From the NCBI GenBank assembly GCA_945833955.1, contig CAMAGA010000015.1, forward strand, positions 1 through 19,473: DNA of 19,473 nucleotides, written 5' to 3'. The number at the start of each line of letters is the position of its first letter. Position 1 is the stretch's first letter. Both the position numbers and the translations under genes were made by a program. The notes under the pieces are model-generated. The model was not told where the DNA came from and searched no databases. It saw only the letters and a list, made by a program, of their open reading frames with translations. Below, piece after piece: positions 1 to 15,562 of the stretch. The DNA is from an uncultured Clostridia bacterium. GTDB taxonomy: Bacteria > Bacillota > Clostridia > Christensenellales > Borkfalkiaceae.

Positions 1-32
1 ATTCTTTTTCATATACAAAACCCTCCTTGGGG

Positions 33-70
33 GAATAAAAAAGCGAACCCTTATTGCAATAAGGATTCGC
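33..70 (-). terminator. Rho-independent terminator downstream of tRNA-Arg
   Basis: Minus strand: 12-bp stem (gcgaatccttat / ataagggttcgc, one C.A mismatch), 4-nt loop, then UUUUUU (plus 37-42 aaaaaa). Sits immediately 3' of the tRNA CCA end. Confidence 0.7.
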
Positions 71-71
71 T

Positions 72-148
72 TGGTGCGTCGTAAGAGATTCGAACTCCTG
101 GCCTTCGGTTCCGTAGACCGACGCTATATCCAGCTTAGCTAACGGCGC
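72..148 (-). tRNA. tRNA-Arg (anticodon ACG), 77 nt, encoded CCA
   Basis: Reverse complement reads GCGCCGTTAGCTAAGCTGGATATAGCGTCGGTCTACGGAACCGAAGGCCAGGAGTTCGAATCTCTTACGACGCACCA. 7-bp acceptor stem with one mismatch, D-arm AGCTAAGCTGGATATAGC, anticodon stem TCGGT/ACCGA with loop CTACGGA (U33, ACG), T-arm GGAGTTCGAATCTCC-like, 3' CCA. Confidence 0.9.
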
Positions 149-169: not shown

Positions 170-198
170 ATTATATATCCTTCTCGCCTTCTTGTCAA
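170..198 (-). promoter_or_regulatory. Consensus sigma-70 promoter for tRNA-Arg (TTGACA-17-TATAAT)
   Basis: Minus strand reads ggataaaaacgcTTGACAagaaggcgagaaggataTATAATagcaagcg. -35 = plus 193-198, -10 = plus 170-175, exact 17-nt spacer. Predicted TSS about 15 nt upstream of the mature tRNA 5' end. Confidence 0.8.
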
Positions 199-200
199 GC

Positions 201-250
201 GTTTTTATCCCTGTTTTTGATTTTTTTTGAAAAAATCTGTTTCTCTTTTC
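201..250. other. AT-rich tract next to the DnaA boxes (candidate DNA unwinding element)
   Basis: cgtttttatccctgtttttgattttttttgaaaaaatctgtttctcttttcc: long T/A runs in an otherwise ~55% GC window, placed between the tRNA promoter and the first perfect DnaA box. Confidence 0.35.
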
Positions 251-259
251 CCTTCCCCT

Positions 260-616
260 TTATCCACAGAGCGGTGGAAAACTTTCCACCTTCCGTGTAC
301 AAAATGTGGATAACTCCAAACGTTCTGTTCGTAAAAACCAAAAAGTTATCCACATAGTTATCCACAGAATGTGTATAAGTCCGTGTTTATACACATTTTT
401 CCACAGCATTCCCCAACGCACGGTTTTTCTTTGGGGGAAAGGCGTGGATAAACTCCGCCCGATTGTGGATAAATTCTTTCCGAAAACCCCTCGTTTCTAT
501 ACAAAATCCGTCGATTTGTCGATAAATTTGGAGTTATCCACCGAAAAGCGAAAGTTATCCACATTCGGATTGTGGATAACTTGGTGGATAAGCGGTTTTT
601 TTTGCGGTTATCCACA
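260..616. promoter_or_regulatory. DnaA-box cluster (candidate oriC or DnaA-titration/regulatory cluster)
   Basis: Perfect TTATCCACA at 260-268(+), 346-354(+), 358-366(+), 555-563(+), 608-616(+). Perfect TGTGGATAA (same box, other strand) at 305-313, 464-472, 571-579. One-mismatch boxes at 370-378, 387-395 (these two form an inverted pair), 397-405, 443-451, 534-542, 583-591. Fourteen boxes in about 360 bp of non-coding DNA. Confidence 0.85.
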
Positions 617-624
617 ATTCCGCC

Positions 625-659
625 GAAAATTATCCCCTTTTCCGCAGAAAAGGGGATAG
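625..659 (-). terminator. Terminator for the gltX-HK-RR unit
   Basis: Inverted repeat tatcccctttt-ccgcag-aaaaggggata (11-bp stem) directly after the response-regulator stop (663). On the minus strand it is followed by AUUUUC. The left arm is itself a degenerate DnaA box. Confidence 0.5.
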
Positions 660-662
660 CTT

Positions 663-1307
663 TTACAGAATATTTTTTAATTTGTTGAGTGCGCCGGCAC
701 GGTTTTCCGCACCGATCTTTTTGTAGATATTGCTGATATGGTTGCGGGCAGAGCCGTCCGAAAGCTTCAGAGCCGTTGCAATCTGGCGGTTGGTGAAGCC
801 GTCGTACAGCATGAGCGCAACTTCCGCTTCCCGTTCGGAAAGGTCAAAGGTATGGCGGAGTTTAACGATGCGGTCGTCCGAAACCTGTTTTGCCGCTTCC
901 GCAATTTTGACTGCAATGCGGGAAGGCAGAATGGTATCGCCCTTGTAGGCGTTGCGGATGGAATCTACCAGAATTTCCGCGGAAACGTCCTTTAAAAGAT
1001 AGCCGCTTGCGCCGTAGTTCATGGCGTCGAGAATATATTCCCGATCGTCAAACGTGGTGAGAATGATGACTTTTACGTTGGGATATTGCGTTTTGATATG
1101 CTGCGTTGCCACCACGCCGTTCATGTTGGACATACGGATATCCATCAGCACGACGTCCACGGGCACTTCCGCTAATTTTGCAAGCGCCTCTTCGCCGTCG
1201 TAGGCGGTTGCCACTACGGACAGCCCCTCCGCGCGGCTGAGAATTTCCGAAAGCCCGTTTACGAGCAGTTCCTGATCGTCGCAAATGAGTACTTTAATTG
1301 GATCCAT
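663..1307 (-). CDS. Two-component response regulator, NarL/LuxR family (REC + LuxR HTH)
   Basis: 214 aa. N-terminal receiver (VLICDDQELLVNGL...VDVVLMDIRMSNMNG...KVIILTTFDD). C-terminal LuxR-type HTH (LSEREAEVALMLYDGFTNRQIATALKLSDGSARNHISNIYKKIG). GGGAGG SD 5 nt before the ATG. Start overlaps the upstream kinase stop by 14 nt. Confidence 0.9.
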   Translation of the reverse strand: MDPIKVLICDDQELLVNGLSEILSRAEGLSVVATAYDGEEALAKLAEVPVDVVLMDIRMSNMNGVVATQHIKTQYPNVKVIILTTFDDREYILDAMNYGASGYLLKDVSAEILVDSIRNAYKGDTILPSRIAVKIAEAAKQVSDDRIVKLRHTFDLSEREAEVALMLYDGFTNRQIATALKLSDGSARNHISNIYKKIGAENRAGALNKLKNIL

Positions 1308-2649
1308 TTTTACCTCCCATAGAATCGCCTTCCTGTTCGGTCAGCGGCAAAGTGATATGTATTTCAAAACCCTCTTCCGGTTCGGAATAGAAACTGAATT
1401 GACCGTGGAACCGTTCGCACATCTTCCGAAGGCCCTGAATGCCGTAGCCTTCCCGCAATAGCTCGATATCTGCGCCGCAGCCGTTATCGGAGAGCAGTAT
1501 ATCCACTTCCCCTTTTTTGCGCTGCTTGATTTCCAGATAAAAGGCGTTGGCTTTACCGTGTCGGATTCCGTTGGAAATGCCTTCCTGCACGATGGAGCTG
1601 ATTGCCGCACCCATCTCCTGCGAAACGAAAATCTGGTCTACGTCCGTGCGGAATTTAATGTGTCCGCCCACCGTAACGTTATCCACGATGGTGGCAATTT
1701 CCGTTTGCAGGTTGTTGATGCTCGTCGTGTTCGTGCCGTGTACCGTCTGTCGAATCGCTTCCATCGTCTTTTTGGCGTTGAAATTGGCGGAAACGATCAT
1801 GCTGAGTGCGTCCTCATACCGCCCGTTTTGCAGTGCGACCCTTGCCGCTTCCGTCTGCATGATGACGATCGTCATGGTATGCCCGGCGTTGTTGTGAATG
1901 GAAAGACTGATTCGCTCCTGTTCCTTGAGTTTGATTACTTCCTCGATGGCGGCCCTGCCCCGAACGAGTTCCTTGTTTGCCTGTTCGAGCTGTCCGTTCC
2001 GCTCGTTGAGCATACGGTTGGCTTCATCCAGCGCCTTGTTCTTATCTTTGAGTTCCTTGTTCTTTTTGTCTATCTCCCTGTTCTTTTCCTGCATGGAAAG
2101 ATTGTTCCGATAGTTGAATACGATAAAGTTGATGGCAAAGAAATGAAAGATAAAATAGAGCGTATCGTTTAAAATCTGACTGGTCAGCTGCGCCGCGTCT
2201 ATATTCCAGAACGTGAATCCGCAGGCGAGAGAGGCAACGATATAGATCAGAAGCACCACGGCGAACATGACCATCGTATCCCGCAAGCGGGGGGAGCTCG
2301 TGTAGAACTCCGTGAGAATAATGAGGAACATGGACGACATACTGATGCCGCCTGCAAAGCACATCATGACGACGAGGCAGATGACGTCTATCACGTAGCA
2401 GACTTCCTTTTGCTTGAAGGAATGCAAGCGGAACATTTTGATTGCGTTTTCCAAAAGCAGTATGACCTCGGCGCCGAGAATGGGTATCCAGCTTAACGTA
2501 TCAAAGCTTTCCGCAAGCGCCACCACGGACATGACGACCAGAAACCCGAAAATGATGAGCTTGCCGTACAGGATGAACTTGGTCTGTTTGCGGAAAAAGT
2601 CCGCCCAATACTCCCAGATTTGCTTCGGTAAATCTTTCAGCCTCTTCAC
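1294..2649 (-). CDS. Sensor histidine kinase, NarL-partner type (polytopic membrane sensor + HisKA_3 + HATPase_c)
   Basis: 451 aa. About 5-6 hydrophobic helices in the first ~200 aa, coiled-coil linker (EKNREIDKKNKELKDKNKALDEANRMLNERNGQLEQANKEL), H-box ERISLSIHNNAGHTMT (DesK/LiaS-like), C-terminal ATPase G-boxes (DNGCGADI...GYGIQGLRKMCERFHG). GTG start in a GTGA overlap with the gltX stop. GGAG SD 10 nt upstream. Confidence 0.85.
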   Translation of the reverse strand: MKRLKDLPKQIWEYWADFFRKQTKFILYGKLIIFGFLVVMSVVALAESFDTLSWIPILGAEVILLLENAIKMFRLHSFKQKEVCYVIDVICLVVMMCFAGGISMSSMFLIILTEFYTSSPRLRDTMVMFAVVLLIYIVASLACGFTFWNIDAAQLTSQILNDTLYFIFHFFAINFIVFNYRNNLSMQEKNREIDKKNKELKDKNKALDEANRMLNERNGQLEQANKELVRGRAAIEEVIKLKEQERISLSIHNNAGHTMTIVIMQTEAARVALQNGRYEDALSMIVSANFNAKKTMEAIRQTVHGTNTTSINNLQTEIATIVDNVTVGGHIKFRTDVDQIFVSQEMGAAISSIVQEGISNGIRHGKANAFYLEIKQRKKGEVDILLSDNGCGADIELLREGYGIQGLRKMCERFHGQFSFYSEPEEGFEIHITLPLTEQEGDSMGGKNGSN

Positions 2650-4100
2650 TGTGCGGACTCCAGAAGCGCAATCGCATGATCCAACCGGGCAAGCGTTCTT
2701 TCCTTACCCAACAGTTCCGCCATTTCGCTTGCGCCGCCGGGCGTGCTTTCCTTACCGGTGAGCGCAACCCGCACGCCCCAAAGCACCTGCGAGTTTTTCA
2801 TTCCCATGGAAACCGCCAGATTTTTGAGCGCTTCGTACAGCGCGGCGTTCGAGTAGTCGTCCGTTTGCGCCAGTACCGCTCTTGCGGCAGGCAGCACTTT
2901 TTTGGCGATGGAAACGTCGCTCTTCATCTTTTTATGCGTGTACAGCGCAGGGTCTATCTCGCCGTATTCTTCTAAAAAGTTGACCTTTTCGGGAATTTCG
3001 CTTAAAACGTCCACTCTCGTTTTTACGAGCGCAACCAGCTTGGCAAGGTCGTATTTGCCGTATACCTTGCTCTTGGCAAAGTACGGTTCGGCAAGGGCGG
3101 TAAACTTTTCCACGGGCATTTCCTTATAGTACTCGCCGGAAAGCCAGCGGAGCTTGGCTTCGTCGAAGATGGAAGGGGACTTGGAAATGCCGTTTACGTC
3201 GAACTTTTCAATCATTTCCGCAAGCGTCATCTTTTCCACGCCGTCCTTGGGTGCCCAGCCGAGCAAGGCAATGTAATTGAGCACCGCTTCCTTGCAGTAA
3301 CCTTTGGCGATCAGGTCCTGATAGCTTGCGTCGCCGTTCCGCTTGGAAAGCTTGTGCTGTTCGTCCTTCATGACGGGCGATACGTGAATGTATACGGGGC
3401 GATCCCAGCCGAAGGTATCGTAAATCAAGTTGTACTTGGGCGTGGAGGAGAGGTATTCGATGCCGCGGATGACGTGCGTAATGCCCATGAGGTGGTCGTC
3501 TATCACGTTTGCAAAGTTATAGGTGGGCATACCGTCGCTCTTTAAAAGAATGCCGTCCTCGATATCCTTATAGTCCACGGAGATTTCCCCGAATACGAGG
3601 TCCTGATAGGTTCCCTTTCCTTCCGTGGGTACGTTCTGGCGGATGACGTACGGTTCGCCTGCGGCGATGCGCGCTTTTACCTCTTCCTTGGAAAGGGACA
3701 GGCAGTGCTTGTCGTAACGGGTAATGCCGTTTTCGTTCTTTAAGGACGCAATGCGCTCCTGCGAGCAGAAGCACGGGTAAGCGCCGCCCAGCTCCACGAG
3801 TTTTTCCGCATACTTTTTGTAGATGCCGCTCTGCATACGTTCGCTCTGCACGTAAGGGCCGTATCCCTTGTCCTTATCGGGTCCCTCGTCGTGGTCCATG
3901 CCTACGTCCTGCAGGGTACGGTAAATGACGTCTACCGCGCCTTCCACAAAGCGTTCCGTATCGGTATCTTCGATGCGGAGGATAAAGTCGCCTTTATTCT
4001 TTTTTGCGAACAGGTATTCGTACAGCGCAGTCCGCAAATTGCCGATATGCATATATCCCGTGGGGGAGGGCGCAAATCTCGTTCTTACTTTCTTTTCCAT
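2646..4100 (-). CDS. gltX: Glutamyl-tRNA synthetase
   Basis: 484 aa. N-terminus MEKKVRTRFAPSPTGYMHIGNLRTALYEY carries the class I HIGH-type motif, and KLSKR is the KMSKS motif. Colinear with Bacillus GltX over its whole length. Stop overlaps the downstream kinase GTG start. Confidence 0.95.
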   Translation of the reverse strand: MEKKVRTRFAPSPTGYMHIGNLRTALYEYLFAKKNKGDFILRIEDTDTERFVEGAVDVIYRTLQDVGMDHDEGPDKDKGYGPYVQSERMQSGIYKKYAEKLVELGGAYPCFCSQERIASLKNENGITRYDKHCLSLSKEEVKARIAAGEPYVIRQNVPTEGKGTYQDLVFGEISVDYKDIEDGILLKSDGMPTYNFANVIDDHLMGITHVIRGIEYLSSTPKYNLIYDTFGWDRPVYIHVSPVMKDEQHKLSKRNGDASYQDLIAKGYCKEAVLNYIALLGWAPKDGVEKMTLAEMIEKFDVNGISKSPSIFDEAKLRWLSGEYYKEMPVEKFTALAEPYFAKSKVYGKYDLAKLVALVKTRVDVLSEIPEKVNFLEEYGEIDPALYTHKKMKSDVSIAKKVLPAARAVLAQTDDYSNAALYEALKNLAVSMGMKNSQVLWGVRVALTGKESTPGGASEMAELLGKERTLARLDHAIALLESAQ

Positions 4101-4220: not shown

Positions 4221-4254
4221 TATTTTAGACAGTTTTTTTAAAAAGGTGGACATC

Positions 4255-5562
4255 ATGCAAGAATATTTTCAGGAAATCGTAAAATCGATCAGCGAAATCG
4301 TAAAATTCGACTCCGTACAGACGGCCCCCCTCGAAGGTATGCCCTTCGGGAAAGGAACGGCGGATTCCCTCCGCTATTTTTTGGAGCTTGCCCAAAGCTT
4401 TGGTTTTGAAACGCATAACTATGATAACTATATCGGCGAAGTCGTCTTCGGCAACGGCAAGGAATTTGCCATTTTGGCGCATCTGGACGTCGTGCCCGTG
4501 GGCAACGGCTGGGAGCACGATCCGTTCGGCGGAGAAATCGACCCGGTGAACGAAAAGATCTGGGGCAGAGGCACCATGGACGACAAGGGCCCCGCCATCG
4601 TTACGCTGTATGCGTTGCGCGCCTTAAAGGAAGAGGGTTTTATCCCCAACCGCAAAATCAAACTCATCGTCGGCTGCAACGAGGAAGCCGGCTGGGAGTG
4701 CATTCAGCATTACAGAAAGGTCGCCGTCATGCCGGAAGAAGGCTTTTCGCCCGACGCGGAATTCCCCATCATCTATGCGGAAAAGGGCATTCACCCCGTG
4801 CGCATAGCCTATAAACTCCCTACGCCTGCGCCCTTTGCTGCCTTGCAGGGCGGAACGGTTGTCAACGCCGTCTGCGATTACTGCGAGGCAACGCTTGCAA
4901 ACGGAGTGGAACCCGACTACGAAAAACTGGAAAAGTTCGGACTGACGTTCGTGCCCGGTTGCGAGCAGAATTGCAAATACTGCAAGGATGGCGGAAAAAT
5001 TGTTTCCCGCGGCGTAGCGGCGCACGCTTCCACGCCGGAAAAGGGCAAAAATGCCATTGAACCTTTGCTCCGTTACTTCGGGTTGGACGATTTGGCGGAC
5101 GTCCTGTTTGCCGACCGTTGCGGCATACAAAAATTGCAGGATGAAACGGGTCACCTCACCTTTTCGCCCGACCTTGTAACTTTGGAAGACGGCGTTCTGT
5201 ATTTTACCTGCGACATCCGTTACCCGGCAACGCTCACTTCCCAAGACGTATGCGCCGCTTTGGATACGTTCGGCCTGCCCTATACCGTTCTGGAAGACAA
5301 AAAGCCGCTCTTTTGCGACAAGAACAGCCCGCTTATTCAGACCCTGCTCGGCGTTTATAACTCCGTCACCGGGGAACACGCACAGCCCATAGCCATCGGC
5401 GGCGGCACGTATGCAAGGGCGTTGAAAAACGGTTGCGGATTCGGCCCGGAAACCGCCGATATCGACAACCGCATTCACAACAGCAACGAATTTATTACCT
5501 TCGGGCAGATCCGCCTCATGTACGAAGTCTACTATCGGGCGATTGCCGCCGTCTGCCAATAA
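4255..5562 (+). CDS. M20-family metallopeptidase, PepV/Sapep-like dipeptidase
   Basis: 435 aa from the ATG at 4255 (strong SD aaaGGTGGAcatc). The ORF-track start at 3925 lies inside and antisense to gltX and is not credible. Motifs ILAHLDVVPVGNGWEHDPF and GRGTMDDKG, with the ~435-aa length, are M20A hallmarks. Confidence 0.85.
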   Translation: MQEYFQEIVKSISEIVKFDSVQTAPLEGMPFGKGTADSLRYFLELAQSFGFETHNYDNYIGEVVFGNGKEFAILAHLDVVPVGNGWEHDPFGGEIDPVNEKIWGRGTMDDKGPAIVTLYALRALKEEGFIPNRKIKLIVGCNEEAGWECIQHYRKVAVMPEEGFSPDAEFPIIYAEKGIHPVRIAYKLPTPAPFAALQGGTVVNAVCDYCEATLANGVEPDYEKLEKFGLTFVPGCEQNCKYCKDGGKIVSRGVAAHASTPEKGKNAIEPLLRYFGLDDLADVLFADRCGIQKLQDETGHLTFSPDLVTLEDGVLYFTCDIRYPATLTSQDVCAALDTFGLPYTVLEDKKPLFCDKNSPLIQTLLGVYNSVTGEHAQPIAIGGGTYARALKNGCGFGPETADIDNRIHNSNEFITFGQIRLMYEVYYRAIAAVCQ

Positions 5563-5594: not shown

Positions 5595-5634
5595 AAAAAA
5601 TTGTGATAAGGATATACCTTATCACAATTTTTTT
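5595..5634. terminator. Bidirectional rho-independent terminator between convergent genes
   Basis: aaaaaa-ttgtgataagg-atata-ccttatcacaa-ttttttt: perfect 12-13-bp stem flanked by an A-run and a T-run. Serves the + dipeptidase gene (stop 5562) and the - kinase gene (stop 5746). Confidence 0.8.
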
Positions 5635-5650
5635 ACAGGAAAAAACGACG

Positions 5651-5745: not shown

Positions 5746-6846
5746 TTATATGCTTTTGACTTTGACCGTAAAGGTACTGCCCTTGCCTACCACGCTGTCC
5801 GCCGAAATTTCCCCCTGCAACAGCACGAGTATGCGCTTGACGAGCGCCAGTCCCAGACCGTTGCCTTCCTTGGTGTGGGAGCTGTCCCCCTGATAGAACT
5901 TATCAAAGATATGCCCGAGCTCTTCCAAAGGTATACCGGGGCCGTGGTCGGATATCTCCGTTACCACGTATTCGCCCGCCCGATAACTTTTTACGCCGAC
6001 GTATCCGCCCGGTTGGGAAAATTTAACGGCGTTGCCGATCAGGTTCGTCCAGACGGTGTAGAGCAGATCCTCGTCCGTGGTGATTTCCATAGGTTCTAAG
6101 TCGATATCCAATTCGAGGTCCTTTTCCGTCCACTGCTTTTCATAGGAGAGAATACTTTGCCGTATCTGTTCGTCCAGGGAAAAGGTGGATTGCTGTATAA
6201 CGAGCGTCTGATTTTCCAGTCGGGAAAGTTTGAGGATGTTCTGCGTGAGCGTCGTCAGGCGTTTGGAGGACTCGATGATGAGGGAGGTATAGTTATTCCG
6301 CTCCTCCTCGCTGAGCGTCGGGTCCTGCAAGAGCGTCGCATACCCCTGAATGGTGGAGAGCGGCGTCTTCATTTCGTGGGAAACGTTGGCTACGAAGTCG
6401 TTTTTGAGCATCTCCATTTTGCCGAGTTCCTGCACCATTGCGTTGAAGTTCTGAATCAGGGTGCTCACTTCATCGTCTTCCTTGCGCAAACAGGGATCTT
6501 TTACGATCACGGTAAAATCGCCCTTGGCAACCTTGGTGGAGGCTTTGCTGATCTTGTGTATGGGATTGAGGTATCTTCGGATAATGACTGCGGAAAGGAC
6601 CGTTCCCGCAACGATGCTGCACAGCCCGATAATGCCGATAATATAGATATTGATGCCTATAAAAACAACGAGCTTGGCGTGTACCAGAAGGAACAGGATG
6701 CCTAAGAATGCAGAGATCGTAACGAACATGGAATTAAAACAAATCCATACGATCCGGAGCGTCAACTGCCCGGAAAAGAGACCTTCCGCCTCTTCCCTTG
6801 CGTCCTCTTCCTCTCTTTTCGTTTGTTTCGGTCTATTGTTTTTCAT
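5746..6846 (-). CDS. Sensor histidine kinase, OmpR-partner type (2 TM, short loop, HAMP, HisKA, HATPase_c), TCS-1
   Basis: 366 aa. Two TM segments with a very short extracytoplasmic loop, HAMP-like AKGDFTVIV, H-box NDFVANVSHEMKTPLSTIQGY, G-boxes GNGLGLALVKRIL and GKGSTFTVKV. ATGA overlap with the upstream response regulator. Confidence 0.9.
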   Translation of the reverse strand: MKNNRPKQTKREEEDAREEAEGLFSGQLTLRIVWICFNSMFVTISAFLGILFLLVHAKLVVFIGINIYIIGIIGLCSIVAGTVLSAVIIRRYLNPIHKISKASTKVAKGDFTVIVKDPCLRKEDDEVSTLIQNFNAMVQELGKMEMLKNDFVANVSHEMKTPLSTIQGYATLLQDPTLSEEERNNYTSLIIESSKRLTTLTQNILKLSRLENQTLVIQQSTFSLDEQIRQSILSYEKQWTEKDLELDIDLEPMEITTDEDLLYTVWTNLIGNAVKFSQPGGYVGVKSYRAGEYVVTEISDHGPGIPLEELGHIFDKFYQGDSSHTKEGNGLGLALVKRILVLLQGEISADSVVGKGSTFTVKVKSI

Positions 6847-7529
6847 GAAACGTTCCCTTTGTTTTTGACGACTTTATAGCCGAGCCCCCGCACCGTAACG
6901 ATGGAAAAATCGGGGTTGTTTTTGAACTTTTCCCGAAGCCTCGTGATATGCACGTCCACCGTGCGCTCGTAGCTTTCGCTGTCCATTCCCCAGAACTCGT
7001 CCATCAGATTGCTCCGCGTGAAAATTTTATCGGGGTAGGATAATAGCTTGAACAGAATATAGAATTCCTTGGGCGGCAACACCACGAGGGCATCTTCCCT
7101 TTTTACGGTAAGCGTATCGTAGTCGGCAACCGTTTTGCCTACCGTTACCCGATGCGCATTGGCGATATTGGAGCGGCGTAAAAGGGCGGTAACGCGCAGC
7201 ACGAGCTCGTTGATGTCGATCGGCTTGACCATGTAATCGTCCACGCCGATGGAAAACCCCCGCTGTTTGGAAGCAAAATCGTCCTTTGCCGTTACGAACA
7301 GTATGGGCATGGTGGCGGAATCCTTGCGGACCTCTTTGGCAAAATCGAAGCCGTCCATGCCGGGCATCATGATGTCGGAAATAATCAGGTCAAACTGCGC
7401 GGACTCGAATGCGGCAAAGGCTTCCGCAGGATTGCCGACGCCTGCGGCGGCATAGCCGTTCCGCTCCAAAACCGTGCAGATGAGTTTATTCAAATTTCGG
7501 TCGTCTTCGACTACCAGAATACGAAACAT
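6843..7529 (-). CDS. OmpR-family response regulator (REC + winged helix), TCS-1
   Basis: 228 aa from MFRILVVEDD (AAAGGAG SD 9 nt upstream). The ORF track extends to 7571 without an SD. Receiver motifs DLIISDIMMPGMDG and ILFVTAKDD. C-terminal trans_reg_C (LLSYPDKIFTRSNLMDEFWG...VDVHITRLREK). Confidence 0.9.
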   Translation of the reverse strand: MFRILVVEDDRNLNKLICTVLERNGYAAAGVGNPAEAFAAFESAQFDLIISDIMMPGMDGFDFAKEVRKDSATMPILFVTAKDDFASKQRGFSIGVDDYMVKPIDINELVLRVTALLRRSNIANAHRVTVGKTVADYDTLTVKREDALVVLPPKEFYILFKLLSYPDKIFTRSNLMDEFWGMDSESYERTVDVHITRLREKFKNNPDFSIVTVRGLGYKVVKNKGNVS

Positions 7530-7705
7530 AATCCTATACTCCTTTCTTTTCCTTTTTATTATAGCATACATTTATGAATGGATTATAAACTTTTTGGGTA
7601 AAAAAAGGTTTTCGCAACTTTTTTTCGGCAAAACGGCAGGGTCGGAGACTGCGCAAAGGCAGGGGAAAAGCCGCCCTCTGAATATGCGGGACGGGTGCCG
7701 AAGCA

Positions 7706-7823
7706 TAAAAAAATTCCCCGAAACTTTCCGTTCGGGGCAATGCCACAAGTGAGTTGGCGGGAATGAACGCGCATAAGCCGTTCAACTGTCTATAAGTATA
7801 TATCACTTTGCGGCAAAAGTCAA
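7706..7823 (-). ncRNA. Candidate small RNA unit: sigma-70 promoter + ~85-nt body + intrinsic terminator
   Basis: Minus strand: -35 TTGACT (plus 7818-7823), 17-nt spacer, -10 TATACT (plus 7795-7800). Predicted TSS about 7788. Terminator: 7-bp GC stem ccccgaa/ttcgggg (7716-7737) followed by 7 U (plus A-run 7707-7713). The body can form a stem AGTTGAACGG/CCGCCAACT. No credible ORF or SD inside. Confidence 0.4.
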
Positions 7824-7998
7824 ACGATTTTTCCGATAAAATAAAATCACAATTACAATTTTGAAAAAAGGACGGTAAACGAAAAATGAAAATCATAAAA
7901 AGGTTATTATCGGAAAAGCCGAACCGCTGCCGTTACGGTAGACCGCCTCGTCCACCCTGTCTATCACTTTCAGGCGCCTCCGTAAAGAAGTACACTCC

Positions 7999-8046
7999 GT
8001 AAAAAATACCGCTTCCCTCGGGCGCAAGCCGATCGGTAGCGGTATT
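7999..8046 (-). terminator. Terminator candidate after the small membrane protein gene
   Basis: 9-bp stem AATACCGCT/AGCGGTATT enclosing a 24-nt loop with an internal CCGATCGG palindrome. On the minus strand it is followed by UUUUUAC. About 60 nt downstream of the stop at 8106. Confidence 0.4.
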
Positions 8047-8105
8047 TGGGTTTTATGCCGAATTTTAAAACTGCAAACGGCCTGTATTTTTGGGAATGCC
8101 GAAAT

Positions 8106-8549: not shown

Positions 8550-9626
8550 TTAAGGCGAGCTCCGCAAGGTAACCGTAAAGGTACTGCCTTCCCCCGGCGT
8601 GCTTTCCACGGCAATATTGCCGCCGAGAACGTCGATGACCCGTTTGACGAGCGCCAGCCCCAGCCCGTTGCCCTCCGAAGCGTGGGAAGTGTCGCCTTGA
8701 TAAAATTTTTCAAAGATGCGATTGCCCGTTTCCGGCTCTATGCCGCAACCCGTATCCCGCACGCTGAGCACCACGTCCCCCTCCGAAACTTTCAGCGAAA
8801 CGAAAATACTGCCTTCCGCTTCCGTGAACTTGACCGCATTGGAAAGGAGATTGCCCACGACGATCTGCATATAAGCGGGGCAGGCATACGCCTTGACGTC
8901 CTGTAAATCGCATTCCAAAGTTATCCTCTTTTTTTCCACCGTATCCTCAAATTTCAGCACTTCTTCGGAGACGAGCGCAGTCAGATCGCACTCCTGTTTT
9001 TCGGGCAGGATCCTGCTGTTTTCCAGTTTAGAGAGCTGTAAAATGTTGGTAACGAGGTCGGAGAGCCTATCCGTTGCCGAAACCAGCGTCCGGACGCACT
9101 GTTCCTTCTTTTCCGCATCCAACCCCGGCTTTGTAAGCAGGGAAGCGTAGGAGCGAATGACGGCAAGTGGCGTCTTGAGTTCGTGGGAAACGTTGGAAAC
9201 AAAGTCGTTCTTCACCAGCTCCGATTTCCCCAATTCCTCCGCCATGCGGTTGATATTCGCCTCGATCAGGTCGTAGCTGTCGTACTTGCCGTAAGGGTGG
9301 CGCAGGGGAATGCGCACGGAAAAATCGCCTGCGGCTATTTTATCCGTCGCGCGGAGGATATCCTGCACGGGCTTATGCGCCATAACCTTTCGCCTGCCCC
9401 AATCCACGACCACGCACACCGCCGCAAACGACAGCGATACCGCAAACATGACGATCGTAACGATGAAGTTATCTTCCGTTACGGAAGATATCATCCGATA
9501 GATGGCGATGGCGATTTCTATGGAAATGAGCTCCATAAAAAAGAGAATAACGAAGCCGAGGGGCGTGATGGTGATCCCTTGCCCGTCCCGCCGTTTTTGC
9601 TTTTTGGAAACCTTTCGATTTTGCAT
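8550..9626 (-). CDS. Sensor histidine kinase, paralog of 5746-6846 (2 TM, HAMP, HisKA, HATPase_c), TCS-2
   Basis: 358 aa. AAGDFSVRI, H-box NDFVSNVSHELKTPLAVIRSY, GNGLGLALVKRVI and GEGSTFTVTL are near-identical in motif and architecture to the TCS-1 kinase. AAAGGGGAAGG SD. 10 nt after the response-regulator stop. Confidence 0.9.
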   Translation of the reverse strand: MQNRKVSKKQKRRDGQGITITPLGFVILFFMELISIEIAIAIYRMISSVTEDNFIVTIVMFAVSLSFAAVCVVVDWGRRKVMAHKPVQDILRATDKIAAGDFSVRIPLRHPYGKYDSYDLIEANINRMAEELGKSELVKNDFVSNVSHELKTPLAVIRSYASLLTKPGLDAEKKEQCVRTLVSATDRLSDLVTNILQLSKLENSRILPEKQECDLTALVSEEVLKFEDTVEKKRITLECDLQDVKAYACPAYMQIVVGNLLSNAVKFTEAEGSIFVSLKVSEGDVVLSVRDTGCGIEPETGNRIFEKFYQGDTSHASEGNGLGLALVKRVIDVLGGNIAVESTPGEGSTFTVTLRSSP

Positions 9627-9636
9627 ACCTTCCCCT

Positions 9637-10311
9637 TTACACCGGCACCGCTTTATAACCCAGCCCGTGCACGGTTACGATTTTGAACCCGTCGCAAGCG
9701 GCAGTTTTTTCCCGCAGTTTTGCCATGCATACGTCCACCGTGCGGGAAGTGGCGGAGGAATCGAAGTCCCAGAACTCGTCCATGAGCACGGAACGGGTAA
9801 AAGTGCGCTTGGGGTTGGAGAGCATCTTATATAAAAGGTCGAATTCCCGCACCGTCAGGGGCAGTTCCTTGCCGTCCACGTAGGCGGTATGCTCTTCCTG
9901 CTTCATGGTCAGATTGCCGACGCACAGCTGTTTTTCCTCTTCTATTCGGGTACGGCGGAACACCGCGTCCACTTTTAACGTCAGCACTTCCACGTCGAAC
10001 GGCTTGACTATGTAATCGTCTATGCCCAGTCGGTAGCCGAGAATCTGCGAATATTTATCGCTCTTTGCCGTCATGAATAAGATGGGAATGCGGGTATCCT
10101 TTTTGCGCACCGCCTCGGCGAGGGCAAAGCCGTCTGCGCCCGGCATCATGATATCCGTCAGGATCATATCGAAAGTCTGTCTTTCGAGCGCCTGCAACGC
10201 TTCGGCGCCATTTTTGCAGGCTACCACTTCGTAACCGCCTTCCCGTAAGGCAAACTCCACCAACGCATTCAAAGCCGCGTCGTCTTCCGCCAACAGTATA
10301 CGCTCCGTCAT
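9637..10311 (-). CDS. OmpR-family response regulator, paralog of 6843-7529, TCS-2
   Basis: 224 aa. ILLAEDDAALN, DMILTDIMMPGADG, ILFMTAKSD, C-terminal winged helix (LLYKMLSNPKRTFTRSVLMDEFW...VDVCMAKLREK). GGAGGG SD 8 nt upstream. Confidence 0.9.
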   Translation of the reverse strand: MTERILLAEDDAALNALVEFALREGGYEVVACKNGAEALQALERQTFDMILTDIMMPGADGFALAEAVRKKDTRIPILFMTAKSDKYSQILGYRLGIDDYIVKPFDVEVLTLKVDAVFRRTRIEEEKQLCVGNLTMKQEEHTAYVDGKELPLTVREFDLLYKMLSNPKRTFTRSVLMDEFWDFDSSATSRTVDVCMAKLREKTAACDGFKIVTVHGLGYKAVPV

Positions 10312-15500: not shown

Positions 15501-15562
15501 GCCCATCAAAAATATTGCCCATCAAAATTATCGCCCATCAAAATTATCGCCCATCAAAAACC
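15501..15562. repeat. 4 x 16-bp tandem direct repeat, unit GCCCATCAAAATTATC
   Basis: gcccatcaaaaatatt / gcccatcaaaattatc / gcccatcaaaattatc / gcccatcaaaaacc, head to tail. Non-coding, between the floT terminator and the GT2 promoter. Confidence 0.8.

Follow-up and report, generated by a model that had tools for sequence, protein, structure and literature searches.

The window analysed here is an entire metagenomic contig of 19,473 bp, and it carries a dense cluster of DnaA boxes close to its left end, where 260 bp precede the cluster. The cluster occupies the intergenic region between a tRNA-Arg gene and an operon of gltX, a histidine kinase, and a response regulator (Table 1). Perfect TTATCCACA/TGTGGATAA boxes are located at positions 260, 305, 346, 358, 464, 555, 571, and 608. 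By chance, 0.07 such boxes are expected in the window, and a count of eight was reached in none of 200 shuffles. No perfect box was found outside of 260-616 in the rest of the 19.5-kb window. Seven additional boxes in the cluster have one mismatch (at 370, 387, 397, 443, 517, 534, and 583), and five more one-mismatch boxes are scattered across the other 19 kb. An original prediction, made from the letters of this DNA, had reported eight perfect boxes in about 360 bp and in both orientations; our recount returned the same eight within 357 bp. The six one-mismatch boxes that it listed became seven. Its tightly spaced pairs (346/358 and 555/571) were seen again when the sequence was re-read, and its convergent imperfect pair around 370-395 corresponds to the inverted TTATACACA boxes at 370/387.

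The boxes are arranged in two three-box modules and additional single boxes. Module A consists of two direct boxes and one inverted box, spaced by 12 bp, and module B has the mirror-image arrangement. Positions 346-366 of module A and 571-591 of module B are the arms of a 21-nt inverted repeat; they are 90% complementary and 204 nt apart. An extended AGTTATCCACA context surrounds the boxes inside the cluster. The coordinates of these and the flanking features are collected in Table 1.

Table 1. Features of the DnaA-box cluster and of the DNA on both sides of it (positions in the window; RBS, ribosome-binding site).
Feature	Position	Strand	Description
DnaA-box cluster	260-616	both orientations	15 9-mers (8 perfect + 7 one-mismatch) in 357 bp of non-coding DNA
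Module A, three boxes	346-378	+	TTATCCACA-3 nt-TTATCCACA-3 nt-TGTGTATAA
Inverted TTATACACA box pair	370-395	both strands	8-nt spacer
Module B	555-591	-	TTATCCACC-3 nt-TTATCCACA-7 nt-TGTGGATAA; mirror image of module A
26-nt unit, three copies	450-582	+	a DnaA box closes each copy; spacing 53-54 bp
Terminator-like hairpin	634-654	-	directly after the response regulator stop codon (663); right edge of the cluster
gltX - HisKA_3 histidine kinase - LuxR-type response regulator operon	663-4100	-	reads toward the cluster
A/T-rich tract	203-245		80% A+T over 40 bp (203-242); between the cluster and the tRNA promoter
Sigma-70-type promoter	170-198	-	TTGACA-17 nt-TATAAT; 12/12 consensus matches; directed into tRNA-Arg
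tRNA-Arg, anticodon ACG	72-148	-	ARAGORN; Rfam RF00005, 60 bits
Intrinsic terminator 3' of tRNA-Arg	41-72	-	14-bp stem, then TTTTTTATT
Start of a cut gene	1-28	-	RBS AAGGAGG 28->22, ATG 12->10, M-K-K-N up to the contig end

In Bacillus subtilis, DnaA binds stably where the Ishikawa A value (box density times affinity) is above 0.3, and this threshold sets eight DnaA-bound regions apart from the remaining genome (PMC2533591). We applied the corresponding definition of a DnaA-box cluster (DBC), at least four close boxes and A > 0.3 (PMC2533591), to the window. The region at 260-616 is a DBC by this definition; A is 0.88 at 346-387 and 0.74 at 555-608, followed by 0.69 and lower values. The B. 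subtilis values are 0.94 for the rpmH-dnaA region, 0.68 for dnaA-dnaN, and 0.36-1.64 for six non-origin clusters, and these non-origin DBCs contain at most three TTATCCACA boxes each (PMC2533591). Values above 0.3 are confined to 260-616, and in the rest of the window A never exceeds 0.03. The cluster should bind DnaA strongly, a prediction that is as safe as inference from sequence alone allows.

The DNA unwinding part of the origins of E. coli and B. subtilis consists of a TTATCCACA-oriented box, followed on its 3' side by DnaA-trios and then by an AT-rich element. We scanned positions 1-700 for runs of at least four in-phase nTA/TAn triplets. No such run was found in this interval, including the DNA adjoining the edge boxes at 260, 305, and 608. 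Edge box 608 is followed by ATTCCGCCGAAAATT and then by the terminator. Edge box 260 reads TTATCCACA, and the AT-rich tract lies on its 5' side, which is the wrong side for a DNA unwinding element (DUE). No AT-rich element is located 3' of a TTATCCACA-oriented box at either edge of the cluster or inside it, and no other intergenic region in the window combines boxes with a trio, as a second, weaker origin would. The tract itself, originally described as 50 bp long, measures about 40 bp and is not exceptional within the window: elsewhere in the contig, ten stretches of 40 bp are at least as AT-rich, so that it ranks eleventh. It abuts the tRNA promoter's -35 hexamer on the upstream side, in the position of a promoter UP element and not of a DUE. 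The oriC-like architecture that had been proposed is borne out in its box density, and its unwinding half is missing, as neither a trio run nor a suitably placed AT-rich element is present. The absence of both makes a self-contained origin unlikely; it is meaningful here because the origins of this clade carry the standard unwinding module (see below).

Both edges of the cluster are ordinary transcription signals, the terminator of the response regulator on the right and the tRNA promoter on the left. The DnaA box nearest to the -35 hexamer of this promoter is 62 bp away. The LuxR-type response regulator is the last gene of the gltX-kinase-regulator unit, and no Rfam family besides the tRNA was found in the cluster region. 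The original prediction named the same flanks, tRNA-Arg and the gltX-kinase-regulator unit, and was also right that dnaA and dnaN are absent from the window. Among other signs of a nearby origin, neither rsmG nor a parS site was found in the window; the left neighbor is seen only as M-K-K-N. We considered dnaA as the identity of the cut gene, and MKKN matched none of the DnaA N-termini available from 59 of the metagenome loci listed below. For rsmG, MKKN resembles the RsmG start of one related locus (MKKL in L080), and four residues prove nothing.

The gltX sequence places the organism among Christensenellales/Borkfalkia-like Clostridia, with 64-72% identity to 80 species representatives. The best gltX match in the genome-collection scan was 72% identical, and no genome of the same species was found. 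The lineage appears isolated, as the nearest other homologue of the response regulator among 5.8 billion proteins is just 64% identical. The gltX-kinase-regulator unit is kept in nine relatives. In those of the nine for which sequence beyond the regulator is available, neither a box cluster nor a tRNA follows it; nadA is the next gene in three. Synteny with the relatives breaks exactly at the cluster, just past the regulator.

In 35 of the 80 related loci, gltX is at most 10 kb away from dnaA, dnaN, or oriC; none of these 35 belongs to the nine relatives that have the kinase-regulator unit. In the relatives (L025, L079, L068, L062, and L064), dnaA and recF are arranged back-to-back, gidA comes next, and no DnaA boxes flank dnaA. 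Origin-like regions adjoin rsmG. They are found between rsmG(-) and dnaN(+) in L038 (1-620), L060 (19841-20305), and L074 (1-290), and between rsmG(-) and gltX(+), directly upstream of gltX, in L080 (9606-9997), where GC skew and gene strand both switch. These regions have degenerate boxes, then a trio-like run, and then an AT-rich stretch. The trio-like runs read ACTACTAATAATAC in L038 and L074 and, by eye, ATACTAATACTA in L080. A strict scan for the unwinding module recovered L038 and L074, with one additional, probably spurious, site in L074; L060 and L080 rest on reading by eye, and the run in L060 is weaker by eye and was not recovered in the automated scan. L027 and L046 have an AT-rich region and a trio-like run upstream of rsmG and are further candidate origins. 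The origin region of Christensenellales looks heavily rearranged. Since dnaA is detached from oriC in these relatives, its absence from the window is no argument against an origin; the original prediction had counted it as one, and its observation holds, with the argument weakened.

With respect to the direction of replication, the minus strand encodes 17 of the 18 protein genes as well as the tRNA and the cut gene. The exception is an M20 peptidase gene (about 4250-5562) on the plus strand, which corrects the earlier statement that every protein gene to the right is transcribed toward the cluster. Cumulative GC skew of the plus strand falls across the contig, and the plus-strand intergenic skew outside the cluster is -0.083. 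The coding-strand GC skew is +0.04 overall for the minus-strand genes versus -0.03 for the sole plus-strand gene; at third positions the values are -0.11 and -0.30. Gene strand and skews both suggest that the leading strand is the minus strand and that the fork arrives from the right. Most likely, replication starts somewhere past the right-hand end of the contig and traverses the cluster leftward. In related genomes, gltX-kinase-regulator(-nadA) has the same relative direction, and in four relatives with a candidate origin (L038, L046, L074, and L080) gltX points away from it. No switch in skew or gene strand occurs inside the window.

Contigs from metagenomes were scanned for the three-box pattern TTATCCACA-n3-TTATCCACA-n3-TGTGnATAA. 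At least 120 loci matched, and each was turned so as to be oriented like the window, where module A has this pattern. We searched their flanks by tblastn with B. subtilis-type DnaA and L34 probes. A DnaN probe of the same type was also used in the tblastn searches of this analysis, and representative hits were confirmed with Pfam. Among the 120 matches listed, dnaA was found in 66, and in 64 of these it is located to the left of the module, on the minus strand, 37-1260 bp away. The rpmH gene is located to the right on the plus strand in 83 of the 120, and one or both genes are in the expected place in 89. The module is thus widely conserved and marks the canonical rpmH|dnaA (oriC1/incAB) region, as a conserved sub-structure of the DNA upstream of dnaA. 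Its orientation between dnaA and rpmH is fixed in bacteria from soil and gut whose G+C content ranges from 30 to 66% (L082-L201). The window's own species is not among the matches listed, and its flanks are non-canonical, with the converging operon in the place of rpmH and the tRNA in the place of the dnaA leader. None of the 120 listed has a tRNA between module and dnaA; in L133, a tRNA-Leu is located on the right, 276 bp from the module.

Neither dnaA nor rpmH was found in 31 of the 120 listed loci, 14 of which are adequately flanked. Several of these 14 contain short, phage-like open reading frames (ORFs), as judged by eye. One locus, L182, has a small orphan cluster of three perfect and two near-perfect boxes (module at oriented position 3512) between two minus-strand ORFs, a 253-residue TatD-hydrolase-like one and a 666-residue methionyl-tRNA-synthetase-like one (by eye); it is a chromosomal, non-origin setting for the same three-box module. 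In L107 (oriented 4-390), the box cluster and rpmH of a common gut species are present and dnaA is replaced. This contig is chimeric, as its left ORF ends in ...CLLYTSPSPRDTR, a translated sequencing adapter. In IMG/VR, 60 viral contigs (L204-L263) carry the three-box module without a nearby dnaA. In some of these the boxes form dense arrays, with 25 in L223, 13 each in L225 and L262, and 11 in L258. The approximately 25 boxes of L223 are organized as repeated (+,+,-) triplets with a period of about 56 bp, with the module at oriented position 3374. A phage might use such an array as an origin or to sequester the DnaA of its host.

The reading that fits these results best is that of a non-initiating DnaA-box cluster that serves in titration, promoter control, or both, and that is perhaps a detached piece of an ancestral origin. 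We hold its probability to be about evenly balanced. It corresponds to one of the two options in the original prediction, a high-affinity DnaA-binding locus of the kind known from Bacillus (DBCs) and E. coli (datA), and it agrees with an A value of 0.88 in a region that has no unwinding module. DnaA would bind cooperatively to arrays of boxes spaced by 12 bp, that is, to the two mirror-image modules and the single boxes. A stable nucleoprotein complex would then form at the cluster; since no DnaA-trio or AT-rich unwinding element adjoins, this complex is not expected to open the DNA. It would hold DnaA off the true origin. Probably, it would further modulate the consensus promoter of tRNA-Arg and would insulate this promoter from read-through out of the gltX-kinase-regulator operon.

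The three-box core is the canonical rpmH|dnaA (oriC1-type) module, and therefore the cluster is plausibly a piece of an ancestral origin. Together with the finding that the dnaA of this clade lacks flanking boxes, the module suggests a remnant of the ancestral origin region. A rearrangement would have separated the box region from dnaA and from the unwinding element. More specifically, an inversion with its breakpoint between the boxes and the unwinding element could have produced the present layout, in which every gene would still be co-directional with replication. A history in which such an inversion cut the ancestral origin apart, leaving the boxes in the present cluster and removing the trios, DUE, and dnaA from them, is one that we regard as rather doubtful. 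If true, it would offer a snapshot of a DnaA-titrating site arising from an origin fragment, in a clade whose origins are apparently at rsmG|dnaN or rsmG|gltX and whose dnaA has been stripped of its flanking boxes.

Several results weigh against a non-initiating cluster that is passed by a fork from the right. Eight consensus boxes exceed every non-origin DBC of B. subtilis, where the maximum is three, and 15 boxes, eight of them perfect, are at the top of the range for the canonical rpmH|dnaA origin regions listed. The orientation of the module predicts dnaA precisely on the side of the contig end. The cluster is absent at the equivalent place in the relatives, and conservation therefore provides no argument for a function. 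The GC skew is weak; in the 8 kb nearest to the cluster it is close to zero, and its contrast between strands comes from a single plus-strand gene. The left flank is missing, and a switch in skew or gene strand could coincide with the cluster. In two of six relatives (L060, which was read base by base, and L027), gltX and its neighbors face a candidate origin about 9 kb downstream. Because gltX is head-on to a candidate origin in these two, orientation alone is not decisive in this clade. The contrary gene orientation that had been brought forward earlier is largely present in the window; its significance is reduced by its occurrence beside candidate origins of relatives.

Two alternatives keep the cluster in a working origin. 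It could be the box-only half (oriC1/incAB type) of a split origin, with dnaA at or just past the contig end and the unwinding half further to the left. The side, strand, and distance at which 64 of the 66 dnaA-bearing loci listed have dnaA are where the window has a leftward promoter and a leftward gene start, and the number of boxes agrees with canonical origin regions. However, a tRNA with its own terminator separates the boxes from the cut gene, as in none of the 120 listed loci; the MKKN start is unlike the 59 DnaA N-termini; a converging operon replaces rpmH, which is on the right in 83 of the 120; the tRNA and 17 genes would run head-on to the fork; and dnaA in the relatives lacks any box cluster. 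On balance a split origin seems rather unlikely. A self-contained origin would fire at the cluster itself, with the 19 kb to its right recently inverted. The cluster is very dense and the sole one in the window, clade origins are detached from dnaA in a heavily rearranged region, with that of L080 directly upstream of gltX, and the 8 kb beside the cluster have a near-zero skew. Nevertheless, the DnaA-trios and a properly arranged unwinding element are missing from edges and interior, the edges are a terminator and a promoter, and 17 of 18 genes would be head-on. We consider this possibility very improbable.

The cluster, the tRNA-Arg, and the sequence to its left could also belong to a prophage or other integrated element with its own DnaA-box array. 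The 60 viral contigs with the module but without dnaA, some with dense arrays of up to 25 boxes, provide a precedent, as do the phage-like ORFs (by eye) in several of the 14 well-flanked non-canonical metagenome loci listed. Synteny with the relatives ends exactly after the regulator, the contig ends coincide between different assemblies (see below), and tRNA-Arg genes are frequent in phages. On the other hand, no phage gene is visible in the window, and the right flank is chromosomal and syntenic. The cluster and the left-end sequence are both absent from IMG/VR, and a collection of phage records matched the tRNA only. In addition, insertion at the 3' end of the tRNA would leave the cluster on the chromosomal side. 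An integrated element appears improbable, less so than a self-contained origin.

Attempts to extend the left flank did not go beyond the window. The regulator was found on four contigs, none longer than 19,473 bp, and exact protein look-ups with regulator and kinase returned only a 3.4-kb contig that ends at the window's left base. Look-ups with the radA (first look-up) and gltX proteins returned no record. Two contigs from the same sample (L001 and L202) end at the left-end base of the window, and one from a second sample (L203; ERZ27292446) ends within 19 nt of its right end; a second radA look-up showed that contigs from two samples share this right-hand stop to within 19 nt. The two flanks probably consist of repeats, strain-variable sequence, or gaps in coverage. 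A circular contig or an invertible segment was also considered; the two contig ends are not linked by any repeat, direct or inverted.

Some features of the window are separate from the cluster. Three two-component systems are encoded within 10 kb (663-2649, 5746-7571, and 8550-10311), one LuxR/HisKA_3 pair and two OmpR/HisKA pairs; the OmpR-type pairs have no counterpart at the same position in the 80 related loci. The M20 peptidase gene and a histidine kinase gene converge on a near-perfect palindrome at 5596-5640, AAAAATTGTGATAAGG-ATAT-ACCTTATCACAATTTTT, which probably serves as a bidirectional terminator. The spacer at 7572-8064 (about 490 bp) contains a single ORF of 120 codons without a Pfam match, and no Rfam hit. 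Near this spacer the slope of the cumulative GC skew shifts, being flat to the left and falling to the right. At 15501-15560, within the 345-bp spacer separating the SPFH-domain and glycosyltransferase genes, a 16-bp tandem repeat (GCCCATCAAAAATATC; 3.8 copies, 93% match) may be an operator-like or iteron-like array.

The control of initiation is poorly mapped beyond E. coli and Bacillus. A site with eight consensus boxes should, judging from its sequence, dominate the cellular occupancy of DnaA whether or not it fires. If it acts as a sink, the DBC mechanism would reach Christensenellales-like bacteria, with a tRNA promoter tied to it; as an origin fragment, the locus would document the fission of an origin. 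Origin predictors that rank by box density would call the locus oriC despite the absent unwinding module.

Among known systems, the DBCs of Bacillus are closest to the preferred reading of a non-initiating cluster. In B. subtilis, initiation is held back by origin-proximal DBCs, an effect that depends on dosage, and such clusters are reported to occur widely among Firmicutes and Actinobacteria (PMC3245932). The window's cluster shares with them an intergenic location, closely spaced consensus and near-consensus boxes, the lack of an unwinding element, and an A value above the threshold. Both adjoin promoters, which in Bacillus are DnaA-regulated, and both belong to Firmicute hosts without SeqA and Hda (PMC2533591, PMC3245932). 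The window's cluster differs in having eight consensus boxes instead of at most three, in spanning 357 bp as compared to high-score cores of 40-100 bp, and in having a tRNA gene as neighbor; it is known from sequence, whereas DnaA binding has been described for the Bacillus clusters.

The canonical rpmH|dnaA (oriC1/incAB) region, found in Firmicutes and many other bacteria, contains exactly this three-box module, oriented as in the window with respect to a leftward promoter, and its box count is similar. In contrast to this region, the window has no rpmH on the right and has tRNA-Arg in the place of the dnaA leader. The datA locus of E. coli adjoins a tRNA-Gly operon, and read-through transcription from this operon modulates datA (PMC10950094). 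In both cases, a DnaA-binding cluster, at datA a non-origin one, is located beside tRNA genes, with a terminator between the cluster and a transcription unit reading toward it (PMC10950094). However, datA is downstream of its tRNA operon, whereas the tRNA in the window is transcribed away from the cluster, and read-through in the window would come from a protein operon. In addition, datA requires a site for IHF to promote the hydrolysis of DnaA-ATP. The likeness to datA is one of functional analogy only.

The oriCII box cluster of Pseudomonas aeruginosa acts as a DnaA-dependent promoter region (PMC13438810). Located upstream of gidA, it is likewise an origin-like box cluster, and its demonstrated role is the control of a neighboring promoter (PMC13438810); phylum, neighboring genes, and box arrangement differ from those of the window. 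Non-initiating DnaA-box clusters are already known, and the candidate described here is located in an uncultured lineage of gut Clostridia.

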